From NCBI GenBank assembly GCA_002293685.1, contig DBDS01000006.1, forward strand, positions 108,867 through 172,866: a stretch of DNA of 64,000 nucleotides, in the 5' to 3' direction. The translations under genes and the position numbers were made by a program. Below, in pieces: positions 2,570-37,081 of the stretch (position 1 is its first letter; each line of letters opens with the position of its first letter). The DNA is from Patescibacteria group bacterium UBA926. Lineage in GTDB: Bacteria; Patescibacteriota; Doudnabacteria; UBA920. The notes under the pieces were generated by a model. It was not told the origin of the DNA and did not search any database. It worked only from the letters and a program-made list of their open reading frames with translations.

Positions 2570-5308
2570 ATGTCAATATTTAGTAAATTATTCAACTTCT
2601 CTTCTGGCGGTGGTTTGGGAAAATACCAATCAGAATTGGGTGTAATCAATGGCCTAGCAGAAGAAGTTTCTGCTTTATCCGATGACCAAATCCGCGCAGA
2701 AATTCAGGGTTTTAAAGATGAATTAAAATCCATTCAAGATGAGAGTAAGGTATTCAAGAAGTTAATAGAAATTCGTCCTCGCGTATTTGCACTAACTAGA
2801 GAAGCATCTAAACGAGCTCGTGGGCAATTTCATTACGACGTTCAAGTAATCGGCGGTTTGGTTTTATCGGAAGGACGTATTGCTGAGATGAAAACTGGTG
2901 AAGGTAAAACATTAACAGCAACTTTGCCGTTAGTCTTGTTTGCTTTGGCTGGACGTGGTACCCATTTGGTTACAGTTAATGATTACTTGGCTAGATGGCA
3001 GGCAAGCGACATGGGAAAGGTTTATGCTTTTCTTGGTTTATCTGTTGCAAGTATTCAACATGAAGCTTCGTTTCTATACGACGAATCCTATCAACCGGAG
3101 CAGGAAGAAATTGATGAAATCGAAGCGGGTACTCAGGGTTTAACTTTGGACGTGAAGCACATGAGACCGGTGCCAAGACAGGAAGCTTATCGAGCCGATA
3201 TCACATACGGAACAAACAATGAGTATGGATTTGATTATCTTCGCGATAATATGGTTCAAAGTGTGGATCAACTAAGACAACGCGATTTGTTTTATGCAAT
3301 TGTAGACGAAGTTGACAGCATTCTAATTGATGAAGCTCGGACTCCATTGATAATTTCCCAACCAGACTCTGAACCAACAGATAAGTATTATCAATTTTCT
3401 AAGATGGTAGACAAACTTCAAGATAAAGAAGATTATACTATTGATGAAAAACATAAAGCTGCCAGTTTGACTGATGACGGAATCACTAAAGTAGAAAAAA
3501 TTCTTAATGTCCAAAACATTTACGACACAAGCGCTGGTGTAACAACATTACATCATATTGAACAAGCTCTCCGTGCAAAAACTTTGTACAAGCGTGATCG
3601 CGATTACGTTATCCGTGATGGCGAAGTTGTCATTGTAGATGAATTCACAGGTCGGCTGATGTTTGGTCGACGTTACAGTCAAGGTTTACACCAAGCGATT
3701 GAAGCGAAAGAAAATGTAAAGATTCAACAAGAAAGTAAAACGTTAGCAACAATCACTTTCCAAAACTTATTCAGACTTTATTCCAGACTTTCTGGTATGA
3801 CCGGTACTGCTAAAACTGAAGAAGAAGAATTTTTCAAAATCTATCAGCTGGAAGTTACACAAATTCCTACCAATCAACCAATGGTTCGTATCGATCAATC
3901 CGATTTAGTATTTAAAAATGAACCAGGAAAATTTGCGGCAATTGCCAGAGATGTAAAAGAGCGTCATAAGAAAGGACAACCGGTTTTAATCGGTACAGTT
4001 AGTATTGCCAAAAATGAGTTGTTAGCAGAAGAACTCAAAAGAGCGGGCATTCCATTTGAAGTATTGAACGCTAAGAACCATGAACGTGAAGCGCAGATTA
4101 TCGCCCAAGCAGGAAGTTTTGGTGCAGTTACTGTTGCGACAAACATTGCTGGCCGTGGTGTAGATATTCTGCTCGGTGGAAATCCAGTTGATAAAGAAGA
4201 GGCTGAGCGCGTGCGTGAGGCCGGTGGATTAGCTGTAATCGGTACAGAACGTCATGAATCACGCCGCATCGACAATCAGCTACGTGGACGTTCCGGACGT
4301 CAGGGTGACCCAGGTTCAAGCCAATTTTACGTTTCCATGGAAGATGACTTGATGCGTTTGTTTGGTGGAGCTCGCATGCAAGGCATGATGGAAACTCTAA
4401 AGATTCCAGACGACCAACCAATCGAAGCGAAAATGATTTCGCGTTCAATTGAATCAGCTCAAAAGAAAATTGAAGGTCTTAACTTTGATACTCGTAAAAG
4501 TGTTCTTGAATTTGATGATGTCTTAAATCATCAACGTAAGAAAATTTATTCCCGTCGTCGCAAATATTTATCTGGAACTAAAGATCAGGAACCAATTAAA
4601 GGTGAGATTTTAGAATCACTTAAATCTAGACTTGCTGAAATTACTTCTGTTCATTTCGGGAACCTTGATTTCAAAGAAGCGTTAGAGCAAATTTCACTGG
4701 AAGCCAGTGCGATATTGCCAAATCTAACTGATGAAGTTAAAAATCAAATTTTTGAACGAACAACTTCCGCTGCAGACAGCGAGTTTGTAGTTTTAGATGA
4801 GCTTAATAAGTTGGCTGATGAAGCTATGGAGTCAAAGAGTAAAGAGATTGGTGAAGAGCTCTACGAAAATATTCTTCGTTCCATTACACTTCAAGCGATT
4901 GATAGACTTTGGATGGAACATTTGGACACTATGGACCACTTGCGTGACTCGGTTCGTTTGCGAGGTTACGGTATGCGTGACCCATTAGTTGAGTATAAAA
5001 AAGAAGGTCACTTATTATTCCAACGGCTGTTATCAGAAATCGATCAACAGATTTTAGGTGCTGCTTTAAGAATCGGTGTTGAAACTCATACGGACGACAA
5101 GGGTCAACAACACCATCATGCTACCATTAATATGACTGGTGGTTCAACCAACAATTCTGCACCTACAGCTGTAGCTGAGCAAAAAGATCCACGTGCGGGT
5201 GACATCGGCCGTAACGATCCGTGTTTCTGTGGTAGCGGTAAAAAGTATAAGAAGTGTGGCTTGCTGAATACGGCAGAACACATTAAAAACTTAGGAAAAA
5301 TCACATAA
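2570..5308 (+). CDS. secA: preprotein translocase ATPase SecA
   Basis: 912 aa. DEAD-motor motifs (MKTGEGKTL, DEVDSILIDEARTPLIIS). C-terminal zinc-binding tail CFCGSGKKYKKCG. The last ~16 codons lie inside or after the attL core and so are phage-supplied. Confidence 0.95.
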   Translation: MSIFSKLFNFSSGGGLGKYQSELGVINGLAEEVSALSDDQIRAEIQGFKDELKSIQDESKVFKKLIEIRPRVFALTREASKRARGQFHYDVQVIGGLVLSEGRIAEMKTGEGKTLTATLPLVLFALAGRGTHLVTVNDYLARWQASDMGKVYAFLGLSVASIQHEASFLYDESYQPEQEEIDEIEAGTQGLTLDVKHMRPVPRQEAYRADITYGTNNEYGFDYLRDNMVQSVDQLRQRDLFYAIVDEVDSILIDEARTPLIISQPDSEPTDKYYQFSKMVDKLQDKEDYTIDEKHKAASLTDDGITKVEKILNVQNIYDTSAGVTTLHHIEQALRAKTLYKRDRDYVIRDGEVVIVDEFTGRLMFGRRYSQGLHQAIEAKENVKIQQESKTLATITFQNLFRLYSRLSGMTGTAKTEEEEFFKIYQLEVTQIPTNQPMVRIDQSDLVFKNEPGKFAAIARDVKERHKKGQPVLIGTVSIAKNELLAEELKRAGIPFEVLNAKNHEREAQIIAQAGSFGAVTVATNIAGRGVDILLGGNPVDKEEAERVREAGGLAVIGTERHESRRIDNQLRGRSGRQGDPGSSQFYVSMEDDLMRLFGGARMQGMMETLKIPDDQPIEAKMISRSIESAQKKIEGLNFDTRKSVLEFDDVLNHQRKKIYSRRRKYLSGTKDQEPIKGEILESLKSRLAEITSVHFGNLDFKEALEQISLEASAILPNLTDEVKNQIFERTTSAADSEFVVLDELNKLADEAMESKSKEIGEELYENILRSITLQAIDRLWMEHLDTMDHLRDSVRLRGYGMRDPLVEYKKEGHLLFQRLLSEIDQQILGAALRIGVETHTDDKGQQHHHATINMTGGSTNNSAPTAVAEQKDPRAGDIGRNDPCFCGSGKKYKKCGLLNTAEHIKNLGKIT
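5239..5262. repeat. attL core (TAAAAAGTATAAgAAGTGtGGCTT) inside secA 3' end
   Basis: Matches 36449-36472 at 22 of 24 nt; identical 12-mer TAAAAAGTATAA. Confidence 0.75.
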
Positions 5309-5331
5309 CACCCAAATAAGACTAAAAGGTT

Positions 5332-5356
5332 AAACCCTGCGAAAGCAGGGTTTTTT
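5332..5356 (+). terminator. rho-independent terminator after secA
   Basis: AAACCCTGC-GAAA-GCAGGGTTTTTT hairpin plus T-run. Confidence 0.7.
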
Positions 5357-5622
5357 AATTGCCTTAAAAGGTCGCGGCGCCCTAGCCGACAATAGGGATT
5401 ATAAGAGCGTATATCTAACCAAAAAACAAAAATGCTAAAAACAATTTTATACATAGTGTTGGCAATAGTAGCTGTGTATATCCTGTGGCAAATTGCCACC
5501 TACGACTGGTGCCAAGTATGGTACGGCATAAAATGTATGCCCCCGTACTAGGACATACAGCCAGTAGTTAGTCAATTAAAACAAAAACAAAATGAAAACT
5601 AAATATATCAAGATTACCTACT

Positions 5623-5907
5623 TTGACAGCCCGTATAAAAAATTTATACCGCAGCCAAAGACCAAGAGAGCAAAGAACCATGGACAACGCAAATAAAGCA
5701 AGTTTGAGCCAACAAAGCCGTTTGCTAGAAATTCTACACAAGTATTGCCCTGAGTATTACGACTATAACGATAGCCGCATGTGGGATTTTACGGAAACAC
5801 TAACTAAGCGGCATGCCAGCGAACTCATTACCGATTATTACGACGGCAAGGTTGATAGGCTCAAAGCTGAATTTTATCAATTTATTAAAGAGAGAAAAGA
5901 ACAATGA
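5623..5907 (+). CDS. hypothetical early protein
   Basis: ORF start is TTG inside a TTGACA hexamer; ATG at 5680 (75 aa) is a plausible alternative start. First gene after attL. Confidence 0.4.
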   Translation: MTARIKNLYRSQRPREQRTMDNANKASLSQQSRLLEILHKYCPEYYDYNDSRMWDFTETLTKRHASELITDYYDGKVDRLKAEFYQFIKERKEQ

Positions 5908-6941
5908 ACCAAGTAACTACAGGCGCAATTGTGTTTAGAAAAGCTGAACGCAAACGCGCAAAAGCACGCATAGCATTATGCGCCCCAGCTGGCGGGGGGA
6001 AAACCCACAGCGCCCTACTCATTGCCAAGGGCTTAGGCGGCAAAATCGCAGTAATTGACACTGAGAACGGCAGCGCGGAACTTGAGGCAGGCAAGCCTAA
6101 TATCCCTGAGTTTGATGTTATCACCATGCACGCGCCGTTTGACCCGATTAAGTATATTGCCGCAATTGACGCAGCGGAAAAAGCGGGCTACGACATTGTG
6201 ATTATTGACAGCCTTACCCACGCATGGGCAGGCACAGGCGGTTTGCTTGATAAGGTAGACACCATTAGCAAGGCAAGCAAAAGCGGCAATTCCTACACAG
6301 CATGGCGTGATGTTACCCCATTGCACAACAAGCTGGTAGACAAAATGCTGCAAAGCACCTGCCACATTATTGCAACCATGCGCAGCAAAACTGACTATGT
6401 GCTGGAAACCAACAGCAAAGGCGGCATGACCCCTAAGAAAGTTGGATTAGCGCCAGTGCAGCGCGAGGGCATGGACTATGAATTTACGGTTGTATTGGAC
6501 ATTGACCAGTCAAGCCATGTGGCTACTGCCACCAAAGACCGCACCAGTTTGTTTGACGGCGCACCATTTGTGCCAAGCCCTGACACTGGGGAAATTTTGC
6601 TTAACTGGTTTAACAGCGGAAAAGCTGAGGAAATGCCAGCCACCCCTGAACCTACCGCACCAGCCGAACAGCCAGCGCAAACGGAAACCGAACCGCAGGC
6701 AGAACCCGAAAAGCCAAAGCCGACTGTAGCACCATTAACTGAACGGGCAACAATTACCCAGCTGGACGAACTTAGAAAGGTAGCGTTAGACACTGCCGCA
6801 GTAAAGGACGACGAAAACCTAGTTAAGTGGATAAGCCTAATGTTTAATGTTGAGGTTAAAAAAGTAACTGACTTAAGCGCAGCCCAAGTTAAGGAAATTA
6901 TGGACGCGGTTAAAGCACTAGACGAGGCACCAAATGTCTAA
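5904..6941 (+). CDS. RecA-like recombination ATPase, Sak4/AAA_24 family
   Basis: Walker A APAGGGKTHSAL, Walker B DIVIIDSLTHAW, size and phage early-region context. Pro/Glu-rich low-complexity C-terminus. Confidence 0.65.
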   Translation: MNQVTTGAIVFRKAERKRAKARIALCAPAGGGKTHSALLIAKGLGGKIAVIDTENGSAELEAGKPNIPEFDVITMHAPFDPIKYIAAIDAAEKAGYDIVIIDSLTHAWAGTGGLLDKVDTISKASKSGNSYTAWRDVTPLHNKLVDKMLQSTCHIIATMRSKTDYVLETNSKGGMTPKKVGLAPVQREGMDYEFTVVLDIDQSSHVATATKDRTSLFDGAPFVPSPDTGEILLNWFNSGKAEEMPATPEPTAPAEQPAQTETEPQAEPEKPKPTVAPLTERATITQLDELRKVALDTAAVKDDENLVKWISLMFNVEVKKVTDLSAAQVKEIMDAVKALDEAPNV

Positions 6942-7772: not shown

Positions 7773-8252
7773 ATGGAAACCTACACAGAAATTAAAACAT
7801 TAAAAGCACAGGTGGAATTTGTACTACAAACCCGCCACGAAACCCGTAACAGCGACGCTGAACTGGTAACGGTGGTTTGCGGGAAATTTGGCTTAGACCC
7901 TATTAAAACAGCCTCAAGCATTGAGCGTTGCCGCAGGTGGTTTAACCAGCGCATGGAATACCTGCCAACTGACGAAAAGATTGCGCACCAGCGAAAAATT
8001 AACATTGAGGAATGGCGGGCGGCAATGGGCTACAAGGCAAGCAAGCTGAACTGGGCGCCGCCAAGCAAGCTGAATGAGCCGATTATAACCCGCGTAAAAA
8101 GCGAAACCTACCCATACAAGGATTATATTATTACCGATTTGGGAACCAGCATAGAGTGTACCTGCCCGCGGTTTACCTACCACAAAACCTGCAAGCATGT
8201 GAAAAAGCGCAGCGAGCAAATCTCATTGTCATTTACCCAGCCATTATTTTAA
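7773..8252 (+). CDS. hypothetical protein with SWIM-type zinc finger (CxCx10CxH)
   Basis: C-terminal ECTCPRFTYHKTCKHV fits the SWIM pattern. Confidence 0.4.
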   Translation: METYTEIKTLKAQVEFVLQTRHETRNSDAELVTVVCGKFGLDPIKTASSIERCRRWFNQRMEYLPTDEKIAHQRKINIEEWRAAMGYKASKLNWAPPSKLNEPIITRVKSETYPYKDYIITDLGTSIECTCPRFTYHKTCKHVKKRSEQISLSFTQPLF

Positions 8253-29120: not shown

Positions 29121-30422
29121 ATGAAAAGCAGCGCAGTAGCGGCAGGCGATACAGCCACAGCCGCACAATACAATAATTTAAGACAAGACGCCAGCGCGTC
29201 AAGTTTTTTGTACCCGTCTGCACAATCTAGCCCAAATATGACAATAAAAATTGAGGCTGGACTAGGATTTATAGGACAGACGAAAGTTGAATATGCAGGG
29301 GGGAATAGCCCAACAATGACAGCGCCAACTGTTAACCCACGCATTGACTTGGTTTATATTGATAGTGCTGGAACTATTACAATCGCAAATGGGGCAGAGG
29401 CAGCCAGCCCAAGCGCACCAGCACTTGTAAATAATACTATACCAATTTGCTATATCTACCACCGAACAACAGCGACAGGTATTTATGATACTGATACTGC
29501 TGGGCAATCTTATATCTATAAAGATTTGCGAGCTTTTCTTACGAACCCAGCAGTTGTGCAGGGTGGTAGTAATATGCAAATTTTTGAAGCCGTTGGGGCT
29601 GGAACTTGGAACAAGCCTACAGGTACAGGTGCAAATAGTGTTGTTATTGTTGAAGTTTGGGGTAGCGGTGGCGGCGGTGGTAATGGTGCTAACGCTACTG
29701 GCGGCGGTGGCGGCGGTGGCGGTGCATATTTTAAGAAAGTTTTTAAAGCGTCTGAACTAGGCTCAACAGAAAGTATCTCAGTAGCGCAAGGTGGCGGCGG
29801 TGGCTCAACTAACGGGGCAGCAGGAAACAACGGCGCCAGCTCTACTTTTGGTAGTGGTGCAACCCTAGTTACAGGATATGGCGGCGGGCGTGGACGAGAG
29901 GGCGTTGCAGACGGGCAAGGCGGCGGCGGTGGCATGTATGGTGCTGGCGAGGGCGGCGGCGTCGGTGGTAGTGGTATTGGTGGTAATGGTGGTTTAGGGG
30001 GCGCACCCAATATACCAAATAATGCAACCTTTACCCACCCGTCTGGTTATGGATTAGGTGCTAACGCTGGCAATGGTATGAACGCAGGGAATAGCACTAC
30101 TGGTGGTGGTGGCGGTGCAGATAGCACACAAACCCCAGGCAGTAGCGTGTTTGGTGGTGGTGGTGGCGGTGCAAGCGGGAATGGTGGGGTTAGTGTTTAC
30201 GGTGGTGGTGGTGGTGGCGGTGCAGGTGCCACAACAGTATCAACTTGTTTAGGCGGTGTAAGCCCCTTTGGTGGGAAAGGTGGTAATGCAGGTAATGGAA
30301 CAATAGCAGCAGAGGACGGACAACAGCCAGGCGGTGGTGGCGGCGGCTCAAGGGGTAATTCCGCTGGTAGCAGAGCTGGCAATGGCGGTAATGGGAAAGT
30401 AGTAGTAACAACTATATTCTAA
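29121..30422 (+). CDS. glycine-rich putative tail fibre / receptor-binding protein
   Basis: 433 aa. N-terminal 190 aa ordinary. The remainder is poly-Gly blocks (GGGGG runs) interspersed with N/S/T/A. Confidence 0.5.
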   Translation: MKSSAVAAGDTATAAQYNNLRQDASASSFLYPSAQSSPNMTIKIEAGLGFIGQTKVEYAGGNSPTMTAPTVNPRIDLVYIDSAGTITIANGAEAASPSAPALVNNTIPICYIYHRTTATGIYDTDTAGQSYIYKDLRAFLTNPAVVQGGSNMQIFEAVGAGTWNKPTGTGANSVVIVEVWGSGGGGGNGANATGGGGGGGGAYFKKVFKASELGSTESISVAQGGGGGSTNGAAGNNGASSTFGSGATLVTGYGGGRGREGVADGQGGGGGMYGAGEGGGVGGSGIGGNGGLGGAPNIPNNATFTHPSGYGLGANAGNGMNAGNSTTGGGGGADSTQTPGSSVFGGGGGGASGNGGVSVYGGGGGGGAGATTVSTCLGGVSPFGGKGGNAGNGTIAAEDGQQPGGGGGGSRGNSAGSRAGNGGNGKVVVTTIF

Positions 30423-33865: not shown

Positions 33866-34084
33866 ATGTGCAAAATACTTTGCCCGAAATGCTTGGAAAT
33901 TACGCAAGGCACTAAGCACCATATATTCCCCAAAAGATTTTTTGGGAATGGCGACAGTACGCCTTTGCTGTATCTTTGCAGGCATTGCCATAGTGAGCTG
34001 GAAAAAATAATACCCCAATTCCAACAGTTGGAAAAAGAGGATTATTTACAGCTTACCCGTGAATTTTTGACCATAGAGGTGTAA
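33866..34084 (+). CDS. small HNH-like endonuclease
   Basis: CPKC...HHIFPKR...CRHCH pattern of a His-Me finger. Confidence 0.4.
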   Translation: MCKILCPKCLEITQGTKHHIFPKRFFGNGDSTPLLYLCRHCHSELEKIIPQFQQLEKEDYLQLTREFLTIEV

Positions 34085-34203
34085 CCATGAGAAAACCACG
34101 CGATAGACTATGCAATGAAACCTGCTAAACCGCGCTGGGCAAGCAACCGCAAGCCCACAAAATCCTACCGTTTACCCTGCCAAGGCTACCCAAGCCAGCT
34201 ATG

Positions 34204-34238
34204 AAAGGCGCCGACTACCCCAGTTTGGCGCCTTTTTC
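34204..34238 (+). terminator. rho-independent terminator
   Basis: AAAGGCGCC-(N14)-GGCGCCTTTTTC. Confidence 0.55.
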
Positions 34239-34244
34239 TTTGGT

Positions 34245-34273
34245 TTGACACAGGGGTTGCTTTATATTAGAAT
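34245..34273 (+). promoter_or_regulatory. sigma-70-like promoter (TTGACA-17-TAGAAT) upstream of int leader
   Basis: Consensus -35 and near-consensus -10 with 17-nt spacer. Confidence 0.5.
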
Positions 34274-34477
34274 ATGCTGTTAACTGAATAATTGACCGCA
34301 GCCATTAAATTGGTCGCTTACCACAAGGTAGGTTGAGGCAAACTGCGGTTTTGTGTTACAATAACCCCGCAAAGACTGTATAGATATACGCCTTTGTAAT
34401 TCCAATTGGAATTGGGGTTTTTTACGCCCTTTACCCCGATTGCGCCGCAAGGCGTTGTTGAATAAAGGAACGCACAA

Positions 34478-34506
34478 AACCTACTGATTTGCCTCAGTAG
34501 GTTTTT
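34478..34506 (+). terminator. terminator-like hairpin 18 nt before int start codon
   Basis: AACCTACTGA-TTTGCC-TCAGTAGGTT followed by TTTTT. Confidence 0.55.
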
Positions 34507-34523
34507 GTGTTTTATTAAGCAAA

Positions 34524-35432
34524 ATGAAATTTAGCGAGGCAATCAAAGAATTTAGCGCATGGAAAGGCTTTAGCGTGAAAAATAATACCGTAAGTGGCTA
34601 TACTGGCGATTTACGGCTGCTTGCTTTATATTTGCGCGACCCCGAAATTACCGCAATTAGTTGGGGCGACATACAGCAATACCAAACCGATTGCATAAAA
34701 CTGGGCTGGGATAGCAATACTTTTGTGCGCAAGTTTATAGCTTACCGCAAGTTTTTTGCTTACTGGCACAGCAAAGACCCAAAAGTGCTTGACCCCGAAT
34801 GGATACCAGTAATGTATGCCGAAATGAAACAGCCGCGGGTTATAGACGAGGCAAACTATAAAAAGCTACTTGGGATTTTAAGCAAAGACAGCAAAGACCC
34901 GCGGCACCATAGGAACCGCGCCATGATACAGCTACTATGGGATACTGGCGCCCGCAACGGCGAACTGCTGAGTTTGAACCTAGACGACATTGACTTAAAT
35001 AAAATGTGTGCCGTGATACGCACCGAAAAGGCAAAGTTTAGACGGCAGTACAGGCAAATTTTTTGGACAAAGGAAACCAACGAGAGTATAGGCAATTGGT
35101 TGTCATTGCGCGAAAAGTTAAACAGCAAGTATTGGCTGATTAAAGACAAGGACGCGCTATTTATTTCTGTTACGGGTGTAAAGGCTGGCACTAGGCTAAA
35201 GGTTGGCGGGTTTGCGGAAATGCTGAGGCGGTACTGCGAAAAGGCGGGTATTGACCACTATAACCCACACAGCTTTAGGCACCACATGGGGCATGACATT
35301 ATCAAGAAAGGCGGCAGCAATTCTGATGTAAGCAACATACTAGGGCATAGCAGCTTGCAGAGCAGTTTTATTTACACAATGTTAAATGACAAAGAACTGG
35401 AAAAGAGATACAGGCAATTTAAAGGTCGTTAA
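34524..35432 (+). CDS. int: tyrosine integrase / site-specific recombinase
   Basis: C-terminal catalytic region HSFRHHMGH...ILGHSSLQSSFIYT (R..H..R..Y). N-terminal SAM-like domain. Adjacent to attR. Confidence 0.85.
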   Translation: MKFSEAIKEFSAWKGFSVKNNTVSGYTGDLRLLALYLRDPEITAISWGDIQQYQTDCIKLGWDSNTFVRKFIAYRKFFAYWHSKDPKVLDPEWIPVMYAEMKQPRVIDEANYKKLLGILSKDSKDPRHHRNRAMIQLLWDTGARNGELLSLNLDDIDLNKMCAVIRTEKAKFRRQYRQIFWTKETNESIGNWLSLREKLNSKYWLIKDKDALFISVTGVKAGTRLKVGGFAEMLRRYCEKAGIDHYNPHSFRHHMGHDIIKKGGSNSDVSNILGHSSLQSSFIYTMLNDKELEKRYRQFKGR

Positions 35433-35490
35433 TTGCCAACAGATAGTAAAGTGTTATAATTAAGGCAAATAAGCAATTAAGGCATAAACC

Positions 35491-36015
35491 ATGGACAACC
35501 AAACACAGCCAACCAAAAAGGCTATTTACAAGCGCTGGTGGTTTTGGGTGTTGGCAGTTGTTGTGCTGTTTGGCGTCATTGGCGCATTTGACGGCGACGG
35601 CAGCAAGACCGAACCTACTACCCAAGCTGAGAGCAGCACCACACAGGCTTACGCATTTGATGTGCCAAGTTTAATTGGCAAAAATGTAGACGAGGTTAAA
35701 GCAGTATTGGGCAACCCTACAAGCGATACCGAACCTACGCAGGCACAGTTAGCCAATGGGCTGACCAAGGAATGGGAAAAGACATTTACCAAAGACGGCG
35801 TTAGCATGCTAGTAACATACAGACTAGCAGACCGCAGCGTGGTAGACTTTTTCATTTCTACCAATGACCCAAGCGGTATGACAAAAGACACCGCTGCGCT
35901 TAAAAAACTGGGCAACATTACCCTAAGCGACAGCAGGTATAAAATTGACTTTGTAGAGGCGCTGAAAGACAAGAGCCAATACACTGGCATTAAAATTACC
36001 CCTACTGGACTATAA
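35491..36015 (+). CDS. membrane-anchored extracytoplasmic protein (lysogenic conversion / exclusion candidate)
   Basis: N-terminal TM WWFWVLAVVVLFGVIGAF, then a Thr/Ser-rich linker and a ~120-aa domain. Sits between int and attR. Confidence 0.45.
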   Translation: MDNQTQPTKKAIYKRWWFWVLAVVVLFGVIGAFDGDGSKTEPTTQAESSTTQAYAFDVPSLIGKNVDEVKAVLGNPTSDTEPTQAQLANGLTKEWEKTFTKDGVSMLVTYRLADRSVVDFFISTNDPSGMTKDTAALKKLGNITLSDSRYKIDFVEALKDKSQYTGIKITPTGL

Positions 36016-36018
36016 TAG

Positions 36019-36047
36019 AAAACCCCGACATAAAAGTTGGGGTTTTT
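36019..36047 (+). terminator. rho-independent terminator
   Basis: AACCCCGACATAAAAGTTGGGGTTTTT. Confidence 0.65.
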
Positions 36048-36087
36048 ATTTGCACCTGTTGGCAAAAGGGTGTATACTTAACTTACT

Positions 36088-36300
36088 ATGCTAAATAACA
36101 CAGAAATTACAAATAAAGGTGGGCGCCCCATGAACACTGAGGCAGTTAAGTTGGTAAAAACCCTAAAAGACGACAATAACCTTAGTTTTAGAGAGATACT
36201 AGAAGTTATGCAGAAAAGGCTACGCCGCAAGCTGGATATTAAGACCATTTACAGGTGGTACCATTACCGCCTACCAGCTGTGGATAAAACGAGGGGCTAA
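36088..36300 (+). CDS. small HTH-like protein (excisionase/regulator candidate)
   Basis: 70 aa, basic, near attR. Flanked by repeated TGTTGGCAAAA...TATACT motifs. Confidence 0.35.
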   Translation: MLNNTEITNKGGRPMNTEAVKLVKTLKDDNNLSFREILEVMQKRLRRKLDIKTIYRWYHYRLPAVDKTRG

Positions 36301-36303
36301 CCC

Positions 36304-36332
36304 TTGCAAGTGTTGGCAAAACCTGCTATACT
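36304..36332 (+). promoter_or_regulatory. sigma-70-like promoter (TTGCAA-17-TATACT) reading toward attR
   Basis: Good hexamers. Contains the TGTTGGCAAAA motif also present at 36055-36065. Confidence 0.45.
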
Positions 36333-36434
36333 GTATATGTACATTGAAAACTAGCTTTTAACCACTGCCTGCCTACCGAACCCGTAATACACCACATTAT
36401 GGGCTGGGTAGGCAAGCAGGCAGGGTTTAACCCC

Positions 36435-36515
36435 TTATGTGGGTGTGATAAAAAGTATAAAAAGTGCGGCTTAGCAAACACAGCTGAGCATCAACGAAAC
36501 TTAGCAAAGCAATAA
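36435..36515 (+). pseudogene. secA: displaced secA 3'-terminal fragment at attR
   Basis: Encodes CGCDKKYKKCGLANTAEHQRNLAKQ*, homologous to the SecA C-terminus at 5220-5308. Confidence 0.65.
36449..36472. repeat. attR core (TAAAAAGTATAAaAAGTGcGGCTT)
   Basis: Direct repeat of the attL core. Followed by a diverged secA 3' remnant. Confidence 0.75.
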
Positions 36516-36523
36516 TTCTTAAC

Positions 36524-37081
36524 ATGGCACAATCGGCTAAAGCAACTTTATTAGAGAAGGAAGCTAAGGCCGTTTTGTTATGTAAATTTTGCCAAAAGAA
36601 TTCTAAAGGCGTTTTAGTCCCAGGTGAAGGATCTTCCAGTGCCAAATTAGTTTTTGTAGGTGAGGCGCCTGGTAAAAACGAAGCTATCACCGGTAAACCT
36701 TTTATTGGTAGGGCAGGTAAGGTATTAGATAATTTAATTACAATAGCTGGTCAAAAACGCGAACAAGTTTTCATAACTAGCGCTGTAAAATATTTGCCCA
36801 AAAATTACATCACTCCAAAGCCTGAAGATATTAAGCATGGTCGCAAGCATTTATTCGCTCAACTTGATATCATTAAACCACAGCTGGTTGTATTGTTGGG
36901 TAATGTTGCTGTTCAGACAGTTCTAGGCCGAACGCTTCCAGTAGCTCAGCATCACGGCACGATGTTACAAGAAAATGGTCAGACATATTTCATTAGTTAT
37001 CACCCTGCCGCACCGTTGTATAACCCCAAGCTTAAAATAATAATTGAAAAAGATTTTAAAGCTCTCAAAAAACTTCTATGA
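36524..37081 (+). CDS. ung: uracil-DNA glycosylase, family 4
   Basis: GEGSSSAKLVFVGEAPG motif A and HPAAPLYNP motif B. Confidence 0.8.
   Translation: MAQSAKATLLEKEAKAVLLCKFCQKNSKGVLVPGEGSSSAKLVFVGEAPGKNEAITGKPFIGRAGKVLDNLITIAGQKREQVFITSAVKYLPKNYITPKPEDIKHGRKHLFAQLDIIKPQLVVLLGNVAVQTVLGRTLPVAQHHGTMLQENGQTYFISYHPAAPLYNPKLKIIIEKDFKALKKLL

Follow-up and report, generated by a model that had tools for sequence, protein, structure and literature searches.

A candidate promoter, antiterminator, and terminator unit split by the attachment site of a secA-integrated prophage in Patescibacteria

A 64,000-nucleotide stretch of Patescibacteria group bacterium UBA926 (GCA_002293685.1, contig DBDS01000006.1, positions 108,867 to 172,866), here called the window, carries a 31.2-kb element at about positions 5251-36460 that is a prophage of a Patescibacteria bacterium, inserted in the 3' end of secA. 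The segment at 36,019-36,515 appears to be the right-end control cassette of this temperate phage, and we propose that it holds part of a promoter/antiterminator/terminator unit that is split at the phage attachment site (attP) and rewired by integration. In circular phage DNA, a promoter designated P2 would act as the early promoter for a promoter-less early recombination and replication operon. A copy of the terminator 3' arm in the P2 leader would pair with the terminator 5' arm once that arm is transcribed, forming a cis antiterminator that admits P2 transcripts to the early genes. Integration would split the unit at attP and leave the early operon behind secA; with the terminator intact and the antiterminator 31 kb away, secA transcription would be halted and the early genes would stay silent. 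The integrated P2 would transcribe the host genes udg-pepN-secDF, now cut off from the secA promoter. The argument is carried by the anatomy of the element, junction and empty-site contigs, conservation among relatives, and complementarity statistics. We assign the overall mechanism a probability of about one half, a limit set by its functional steps, namely promoter activity, antitermination, DNA binding by a helix-turn-helix (HTH) protein, and rescue of downstream genes from polarity, which we infer from sequence.

GC content and an att duplication together define the prophage limits. The composition profile rises from ~37% GC outside the element to 45-50% between roughly 5.3 and 36.4 kb, and a 12-bp core, TAAAAAGTATAA, is present identically as attL at 5239-5250 and as attR at 36449-36460, as established by repeat search, alignment, and junction contigs (these and all other window features listed below with coordinates are on the + strand). 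The core is embedded in two diverged copies of the sequence coding for the SecA C-terminal zinc finger. Around AAGAAGTATAAGAA, the innermost repeat, GTGGC..GCCAC, consists of the Cys-Gly and Cys-His codons of this zinc finger and is a plausible recombinase core site. The tRNA scan found none, so att here is not a tRNA. The resident secA (2570-5308, Pfam SecA domains) is chimeric, host-encoded up to the att core with its last 19 codons from the phage, and its C-terminus is unlike the native C-terminus at the empty site. The phage-borne mimic of the secA 3' end (5251-5308, encoding KKCGLLNTAEHIKNLGKIT and a stop) is found both in attL and in attP contig L003 (L numbers designate the contigs and loci compared). 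The displaced native secA 3' end, which is host DNA, lies at 36461-36515 and matches empty site L370; the gene beyond it (36524-37081) encodes the host family-4-type UDG and is the first in udg-pepN-secD-secF. In NCBI the host proteins carry the label "Patescibacteria group bacterium".

A preliminary description of this DNA had held that the two prophage ends adjoin in the circular form. This arrangement is seen directly in five metagenome contigs (L003, L004, L008, L009, and L011), in which window position 36460 is joined to 5251. In a related, ~80% identical strain the empty site (L370-L372) reads secA, 8 nt, udg, and the gap contains no promoter-like or terminator-like element above chance; with the two genes 8 nt apart and nothing between them, udg-pepN-secDF would natively depend on secA transcription. 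Since the secA end at the empty site resembles window 36461-36515, the phage swaps the last 19 secA codons for its own (5251-5308). The same comparison indicates that the phage adds an intrinsic terminator at 5332-5359 and shifts the native secA end to attR. No empty site was found for the same strain, all contigs being prophage-bearing or ending at att or at a hairpin in the P2 leader (36358-36430). Three contigs, L017-L019, each start at window position 36406, and L275 stops just past the attL core. Breaks in this hairpin or in the att core, found in several independent assemblies, are consistent with the coexistence of integrated and excised forms; sludge-bioreactor samples such as JGI 3300013288 and 3300013289 contain both.

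Within the cassette, all features that had been placed at 36040-36440 were recovered: two sigma-70-like promoters, which have TGTTGGCAAAA in common, an HTH gene between them, and a long hairpin. P1 (36050-36078) comprises TTGCAC at 36050-36055, a 17-nt spacer, and TATACT at 36073-36078, and P2 (36304-36332) comprises TTGCAA at 36304-36309, a 17-nt spacer, and TATACT at 36327-36332; both were read from the sequence and recovered by a scan for sigma-70-type consensus sites. P2 is predicted by both approaches to be directed across att, in agreement with the preliminary description, and lies 117 nt upstream of the attR core and contiguous with the left end in the attP contigs. The word TGTTGGCAAAA occupies the spacers of P1 (36057-36067) and P2 (36311-36321). 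Both copies of the motif said to flank the HTH gene therefore exist, with a gap of 5 nt to TATACT in place of the 7-8 nt first reported. The number of promoter-like matches in the region is not above that of shuffles (14 found vs 8.6 expected).

At the other end of the element, the scan-predicted intrinsic terminator AAACCCTGC-GAAA-GCAGGGTTT with its T run (5332-5359) closes secA and would insulate the early operon. The order in the circle is P2, hairpin, core, secA mimic, terminator, a 39-aa open reading frame (ORF), and the early genes, so P2 could reach the early operon only by antitermination. P2 had been put forward as the early promoter without regard to this intervening terminator. That assignment is favored by promoter scanning of the interval from the terminator to the early genes, which finds no sigma-70-like site in L021 or L267 and one weak, nonconserved site in the window; given this lack, P2 is the best candidate for an early promoter.

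The means of antitermination would lie in the P2 leader. It contains the long imperfect hairpin (36358-36430; arms 36358-36382/36406-36430, inner arms 36365-36388/36396-36419), which is 100% identical in L011, followed by a candidate antiterminator strand, GCAGGGTTTAACCCCTTATGTGGGTGTGAT, at 36419-36448. This strand is complementary to 5306-5341, the P' arm half of a long-range inverted repeat that overlaps the terminator 5' arm, as seen in the repeats of the attP contig and in RNA folds. The fold of the P2 transcript from the circular form has an energy of -91.3 kcal/mol (z = -8.2), and in it leader-arm pairing replaces the terminator. The large inverted repeat into which P2 had been said to read is better described not as a dead end but as the opening of a leader, and in these folds the 3' part of that leader pairs with the terminator 5' arm. 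We also considered an ATG at 36399 inside the hairpin, in frame with the secA mimic and potentially opening a 37-38-aa peptide with the zinc-finger motif (36399-36515), as the start of a leader peptide. A similar mini-ORF occurs in L042 (about 4753-4824, MTKKIIRETPCGTRKKFKKCHGK) but not in L021 or L024, and this candidate was rejected.

Relatives of the phage were collected by Int-based scans of IMG/VR, GTDB genomes, and JGI metagenomes and by look-ups of HTH homologues. The int relatives occur almost exclusively in metagenome-assembled genomes (MAGs) of Patescibacteria and share a common layout: int, an optional moron, P1, a small HTH gene, P2, leader, attP, terminator, and early genes. Conservation in related phages, named as a check in the preliminary description, is therefore found, and it extends to int identities of only 42-56% (42-64% over all scans). 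The attP types vary and include the secA mimic, a tRNA 3' end (L364), and other types (L267-269 and L367). The terminator occupies the same position in all relatives, often with a GAAA loop. The terminators themselves are unrelated in sequence, and yet each leader includes a short copy of the 3' arm of the terminator from the same phage: GCAGGG in the window, CAGTAAGGGG in L021, GACGAGG in L020, TTCGTGAG in L042, TAGTAGG in L267, and GATCAGG in L367.

We quantified this complementarity as the best duplex between the leader and the terminator 5' arm plus loop, compared with 2000 dinucleotide shuffles of the leader. The duplex is individually significant (p <= 0.013) in seven of nine lineages, with p = 0.0005 for the window (L003), 0.0015 for L026, 0.008 for L027, 0.001 for L042, 0.004 for L043, 0.008 for L045, 0.013 for L267, 0.004 for L268, 0.005 for L269, and 0.0015 for L367. 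In contrast, the control L190, a non-cognate junction of tandem prophages whose left side is identical to L026 up to the core and whose right side comes from another phage, gives p = 0.90. Four further controls in which attR is followed by host genes and host terminators (L053, L058, L072, and L098) give p = 0.13-0.77. When transcripts are folded only to the terminator loop, before the 3' arm is made, the 5' arm is paired to the leader in the minimum free energy structures of 12 of the 13 cognate transcripts. The proposal that integration uncouples the early promoter from the early genes gains comparative support from the direction of P2 and from the lack of a promoter-like site ahead of the early genes in three lineages; what it had overlooked is the terminator, the leader pairing, and the replacement of the secA 3' end.

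Two observations from these scans deserve separate mention. In L190/L201 (Ga0207433_10000814), one secA site is occupied by two different prophages of the family, arranged in tandem with 32 kb between their int genes, and the outward promoter of one faces the early operon of the other. The module also occurs in MAGs labelled uncultured Gammaproteobacteria or Bdellovibrionales (L053-L055, L058, L059, L064, and L099), one of them a complete chromosome of 886 kb; these labels may be wrong, or the contigs mis-binned.

The gene between the two promoters (36088-36300) encodes a 70-aa protein that, to judge by homologues and modelling, is probably a three-helix HTH protein; it has a GRP motif and may belong with HTH_23/28 or with sigma region 4. 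The window protein itself has no Pfam match, excisionase families included, and HTH_23/HTH_28 (PF13384 or PF13518) is detected in 2 of 20 homologues. Its AlphaFold model (pLDDT 77, core above 90) shows three helices and no wing. The closest Foldseek superposition is with ECF sigma region 4 (sigmaE, 2h27; root-mean-square deviation 0.6 A over 41 residues, probability 0.89, with an E-value that is not significant). Judged by this model, the protein has neither the winged helix of Xis nor the five-helix fold of Cro/CI. A search of IMG/VR with the 70-aa protein found no relatives, and neither the HTH protein nor int has a match in the GenBank phage collection. In the window the ATG of the HTH gene lies 9 nt past the P1 -10 box, which makes its mRNA near-leaderless; the distance is 6 nt in L011 and at most 10 nt in 24 of 50 P1/P2 pairs.

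Repeated words in the promoters point to likely targets of this protein. The window contains five copies of the word TGTTGGCAA, where 1.34 would be expected; only 1 of 100 shuffles reached five. Four of these copies (35433, inverted; 36057; 36311; and 5457) fall in a stretch of ~1.25 kb that spans the junction of the phage ends. When five diverged relatives are aligned, P1 and P2 stand out as invariant blocks and the HTH coding sequence between them is free to vary; the terminator ahead of P1 keeps its structure with a different sequence. Among 50 non-redundant cognate P1/P2 pairs, 38% have a common spacer word of at least 7 nt, compared with 2.3% of non-cognate pairs and 1.4% of shuffled spacers. 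The word is thus common within one phage and different between phages, in line with the operator role suggested for it earlier, and it behaves like an operator as far as sequence can tell. Recognition helices co-occur with particular words: (I/V)K(T/N)(I/V)YRWY pairs with GTTGGCAA in the window, L268, L364, and L073, and RQQVNRW with TGTTGACAA. The copy at 5457 is kept in L267 and L269 despite a 1-nt shift relative to the frame of the small ORF that contains it. Our best guess is that the 70-aa protein binds TGTTGRCAA words and has a repressor or immunity role. Translated from its near-leaderless mRNA, it would probably bind at the sie promoter, P1, P2, and the site past the terminator, tuning or repressing these promoters in autoregulation and immunity.

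Several results weigh against the split-unit mechanism. First, the leader-terminator duplex is individually non-significant in L040 (p = 0.28), L364 (p = 0.10), and L032 (p = 0.23, with one mismatch), the last a sister of L027. Second, full-length RNA favors the terminator over the antiterminator by 3-11 kcal/mol in seven of eight phages, the antiterminator prevailing only in the window, so that antitermination would have to be kinetic, partial, or factor-assisted. This thermodynamic preference is also what would be expected if P2 were an outward rescue promoter only, serving udg-pepN-secDF, with circular transcripts ending at the phage terminator, the early genes using a promoter of their own that we did not recognize, and the complementarity having no role in antitermination. 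The native secA-udg gap of 8 nt, empty of signals, fits such a purely outward role, as do other attR sites, which have host genes immediately behind them in the same orientation. The match of each leader to its own terminator arm, present in nine lineages and not at the non-cognate junction, would then go unexplained, however, and no conserved promoter precedes the early genes. A rescue role for P2 is moreover compatible with the split unit, of which it forms part; as the whole account of P2 we consider it unlikely.

Third, both strands of the paired region fold about equally and there is no G.U excess, which renders a strand-asymmetry test uninformative, and the pairing may act as a palindrome at the DNA level. 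The nested inverted repeats would in that case be sites for Int and an accessory protein, the 70-aa protein would be an excisionase (recombination directionality factor, RDF) binding TGTTGGCAA words in the arms, and P1 and P2 would simply express this protein and its neighbors. Small DNA-binding proteins encoded beside int and att are frequently excisionases, and the 70-aa gene sits near int and att. The GTGGC..GCCAC repeat flanking the core resembles recombinase core sites, and the L367 arm has three repeated 30-nt units. These ~30-nt direct repeats (ATTAGCACTC..CTTGACA..GAGCGATATC, at 2830-2960 of L367) lie between P2 and the terminator and could be arm-type recombinase sites, iterons, or tandem promoters. 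An arrangement of this kind would nevertheless make it a coincidence that the outermost pairing partner is always the terminator 5' arm, a pattern that recurs over secA, tRNA, and other att types and that fits an RNA role. Nor does it agree well with the proteins: Int is a 302-aa XerC/D-like enzyme in which Pfam detects no separate arm-binding domain, and the HTH model has three helices, no wing, and no Pfam excisionase match. The words, for their part, belong to promoters, as pieces of spacers or -35 boxes, and are 130-1000 bp away from the core. Because RDFs are diverse, an excision role for the 70-aa protein may still be compatible with the missing winged-helix match; an account of the whole region as a set of recombination sites seems to us decidedly unlikely.

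Fourth, for the largest clade, which has TTGACA..TGACAG promoters, no circular form was found. An exact 15-mer from the leader of this clade, searched in IMG/VR, had family context only at the already known integrated locus. With the Sak4-like protein as bait for attP-spanning contigs, 80 loci were retrieved, none with a secA mimic; this protein is too widespread for the bait to be informative. Finally, sigma-70-type promoter rules are an assumption for a host of the Candidate Phyla Radiation (CPR), and strong repression of P2 by the HTH protein would also starve the downstream host genes.

The duplex could also act on RNA stability. Formed only on circular DNA, it might be a processing site, for example for RNase III, that alters the stability of the HTH/P2 transcript, so that the regulator accumulates only after integration. 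Lambda offers a precedent in sib, an RNase III site that destabilizes the int mRNA. Integration-dependent immunity is a second precedent (PMC3694055). In the window the duplex is ~30 bp, imperfect, and present only with intact attP, and P1 transcripts meet no terminator before att, all of which would suit such retroregulation. In most relatives, on the other hand, the outer helix is only 7-13 bp, short for RNase III, and the terminator arm as the specific partner is left without explanation; we regard this possibility as very improbable. The comparison with sib is instructive all the same: both involve a cis RNA element parted from its target at attP, with RNA fate differing between the circular and integrated states, and the systems differ in that the target here would be the terminator before the early genes.

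The gene content of the element agrees with a switch that lacks a conventional repressor pair. All convincing genes are on the + strand, and the reported absence of a divergent cI/cro-like pair was upheld by examination of 30 plus-strand proteins and 19 minus-strand ORFs: Pfam finds no CI/Cro/XRE/LexA/HTH_3-type protein among the former and no match whatever among the latter. A repressor encoded elsewhere, including on the minus strand, which would have spoken against the preliminary description, was thus looked for and not found. The ORF at 5623-5907, previously named as a second HTH candidate, fared less well, since its probable start is the ATG at 5680 (75 aa) and neither Pfam nor PHROGs gives an HTH signal. 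This 75-aa ORF opens the early operon (start region 5680-6941) and is followed by the Sak4-like AAA_24 protein (5904-6941); DUF7307, a SWIM protein, a RepO-like protein, and RusA complete the early genes recognized by Pfam and PHROGs. Packaging and virion genes, an endolysin, HNH, int, a Sie-like membrane gene, and the 70-aa gene come after them.

Between the terminator and the early genes, the 39-aa membrane-peptide ORF (5432-5551) holds the third TGTTGGCA word at 5457-5465. Its hydrophobic product (MLKTILYIVLAIVAVYILWQIATYDWCQVWYGIKCMPPY) has no Pfam match and is kept in L267 and L269. The 159-aa SWIM protein (7773-8252), whose zinc finger falls just under the Pfam threshold and which shows a faint Sigma70_r3 signal (E = 0.037), could be a phage transcription factor for later genes. 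In the tail region, a 433-aa protein (29121-30422) carries long glycine runs (GGGGGGGG, GGGGGA-type repeats).

In the proposed mechanism excision would be the committed step of induction, with int under its own strong promoter, structured leader, and terminator. The tyrosine integrase (34524-35432, 302 aa) matches Pfam Phage_integrase and Phage_int_SAM_1. Its upstream control region (34245-34523) comprises a near-consensus promoter, TTGACA-17-TAGAAT (34245-34273), a leader of ~200 nt with a fold z score of -6.05 against shuffles, and a terminator (34476-34505) 18 nt ahead of the int ATG, as located by promoter and terminator scans. The non-coding 440 bp ahead of int (34085-34523) includes a late-gene terminator at about 34205-34240. 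The int leader also contains, at 34334-34342, a stretch (TGAGGCAAA) that complements TTTGCCTCA in the loop and 3' arm of the terminator, and this pairing could be an attenuator governing int and hence excision. Rfam gave no credible match, whether for the whole window at the gathering threshold or for 34000-36600 at E<=5.

Downstream of int, the unit at 35433-36046, delineated by scans and PHROGs, contains a sie promoter (TTGCCA-16-TATAAT), the Sie-like membrane gene (35491-36015), and a terminator (36019-36046). The -35 box of this promoter is the inverted TGTTGGCAA word (35433-35441), which is kept in L268. The slot between int and the HTH gene holds interchangeable morons, Sie-like in the window and DUF4352 in L011 (903-1472), and the promoter and int end flanking it are ~94% identical between the two.

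The closest known counterpart is Tn916, in which the promoter Porf7 and a cis antiterminator RNA, canT, lie at one end of the element and an insulator terminator, T1, at the other, so that it takes excision to bring the two together (Wirachman and Grossman 2024, PMC11658703). Like Tn916, the phage has a predicted promoter and a candidate antiterminator at its right end and a predicted terminator before seemingly promoter-less genes at its left end; these parts are united only in the excised circle, and the terminator would shield the element genes from host read-through. The canT RNA acts processively, works on terminators of other origin (heterologous ones), and is believed to modify RNA polymerase (PMC11658703). 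The candidate antiterminator here pairs instead with one particular terminator arm, and this specificity suggests a non-processive mode other than that of canT. Whereas Tn916 is an integrative and conjugative element (ICE) of Firmicutes, the element described here is a temperate tailed phage with a CPR host. Its terminator, unlike that of Tn916, also closes a host gene (essential secA, or a tRNA) with a phage-replaced 3' end, and its promoter would also serve downstream host genes. The Tn916-type logic is therefore known from a conjugative element, and the variant lies in the kind of element, the phylum, the terminator-specific pairing, and the double use in repair of the host operon. Our reading of the literature found no description of such a split switch in tailed phages or for Patescibacteria phages.

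Mycobacteriophage BPs and its relatives carry attP within the repressor gene itself, and the protein made after integration is a truncated form that is stable and active (Broussard and Hatfull, PMC3694055; PMC4557955). The phage described here shares with BPs a compact switch beside int and attP, a regulatory state that integration would alter, and the lack of lambda-like cII, cIII, and xis genes. However, 149 nt separate the HTH stop codon from attP downstream of it, and the attP (L003) and attR forms do not differ in the ORF; attP being outside the regulator gene, this is not integration-dependent immunity of the BPs type, and transcription units would be rewired here rather than a protein.

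The design is also reminiscent of the trp, T-box, and riboswitch attenuators, where the terminator 5' arm can be sequestered by a strand upstream of it and the two pairings exclude each other. The sequence contains the parts of an attenuator: a G+C-rich hairpin with a U tract and, upstream, a strand that can pair with the 5' arm. In place of the ligand, tRNA, or leader peptide of those systems, the signal here would be the presence of both halves on one DNA molecule. Lambda cI is expressed from PRM as a near-leaderless mRNA, and the phage resembles the lambda CI/Cro system both in a regulator made from such an mRNA and in operator-like repeated words in its promoters. It differs from that system in having no divergent pair and no Cro/CI (HTH_3) fold, and in having all its genes on one strand.

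Phages of Patescibacteria (CPR) are nearly unstudied experimentally, their maintenance of lysogeny included. If the mechanism proposed here is correct, the principle shown in 2024 for Tn916 extends to tailed phages of a distant phylum, through a simpler, base-pairing antiterminator. It also provides a sequence rule for recognizing att-proximal prophage ends in metagenomic data, where a promoter pointing outward should be followed by a leader with complementarity to the far-end terminator. For the family as a whole, we tentatively suggest, at short of even odds, that lysogeny may be maintained largely without a dedicated divergent repressor switch. In such a family attP would split an RNA attenuator, circular or integrated topology would be read by co-transcriptional RNA folding, and the same parts would double as host-gene repair, supplying the secA or tRNA terminator and the promoter of the downstream operon. 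The mechanism, if true, would explain how a phage can reside within the essential, highly transcribed secA-udg-pepN-secDF operon, neither being switched on by it nor starving the genes behind.

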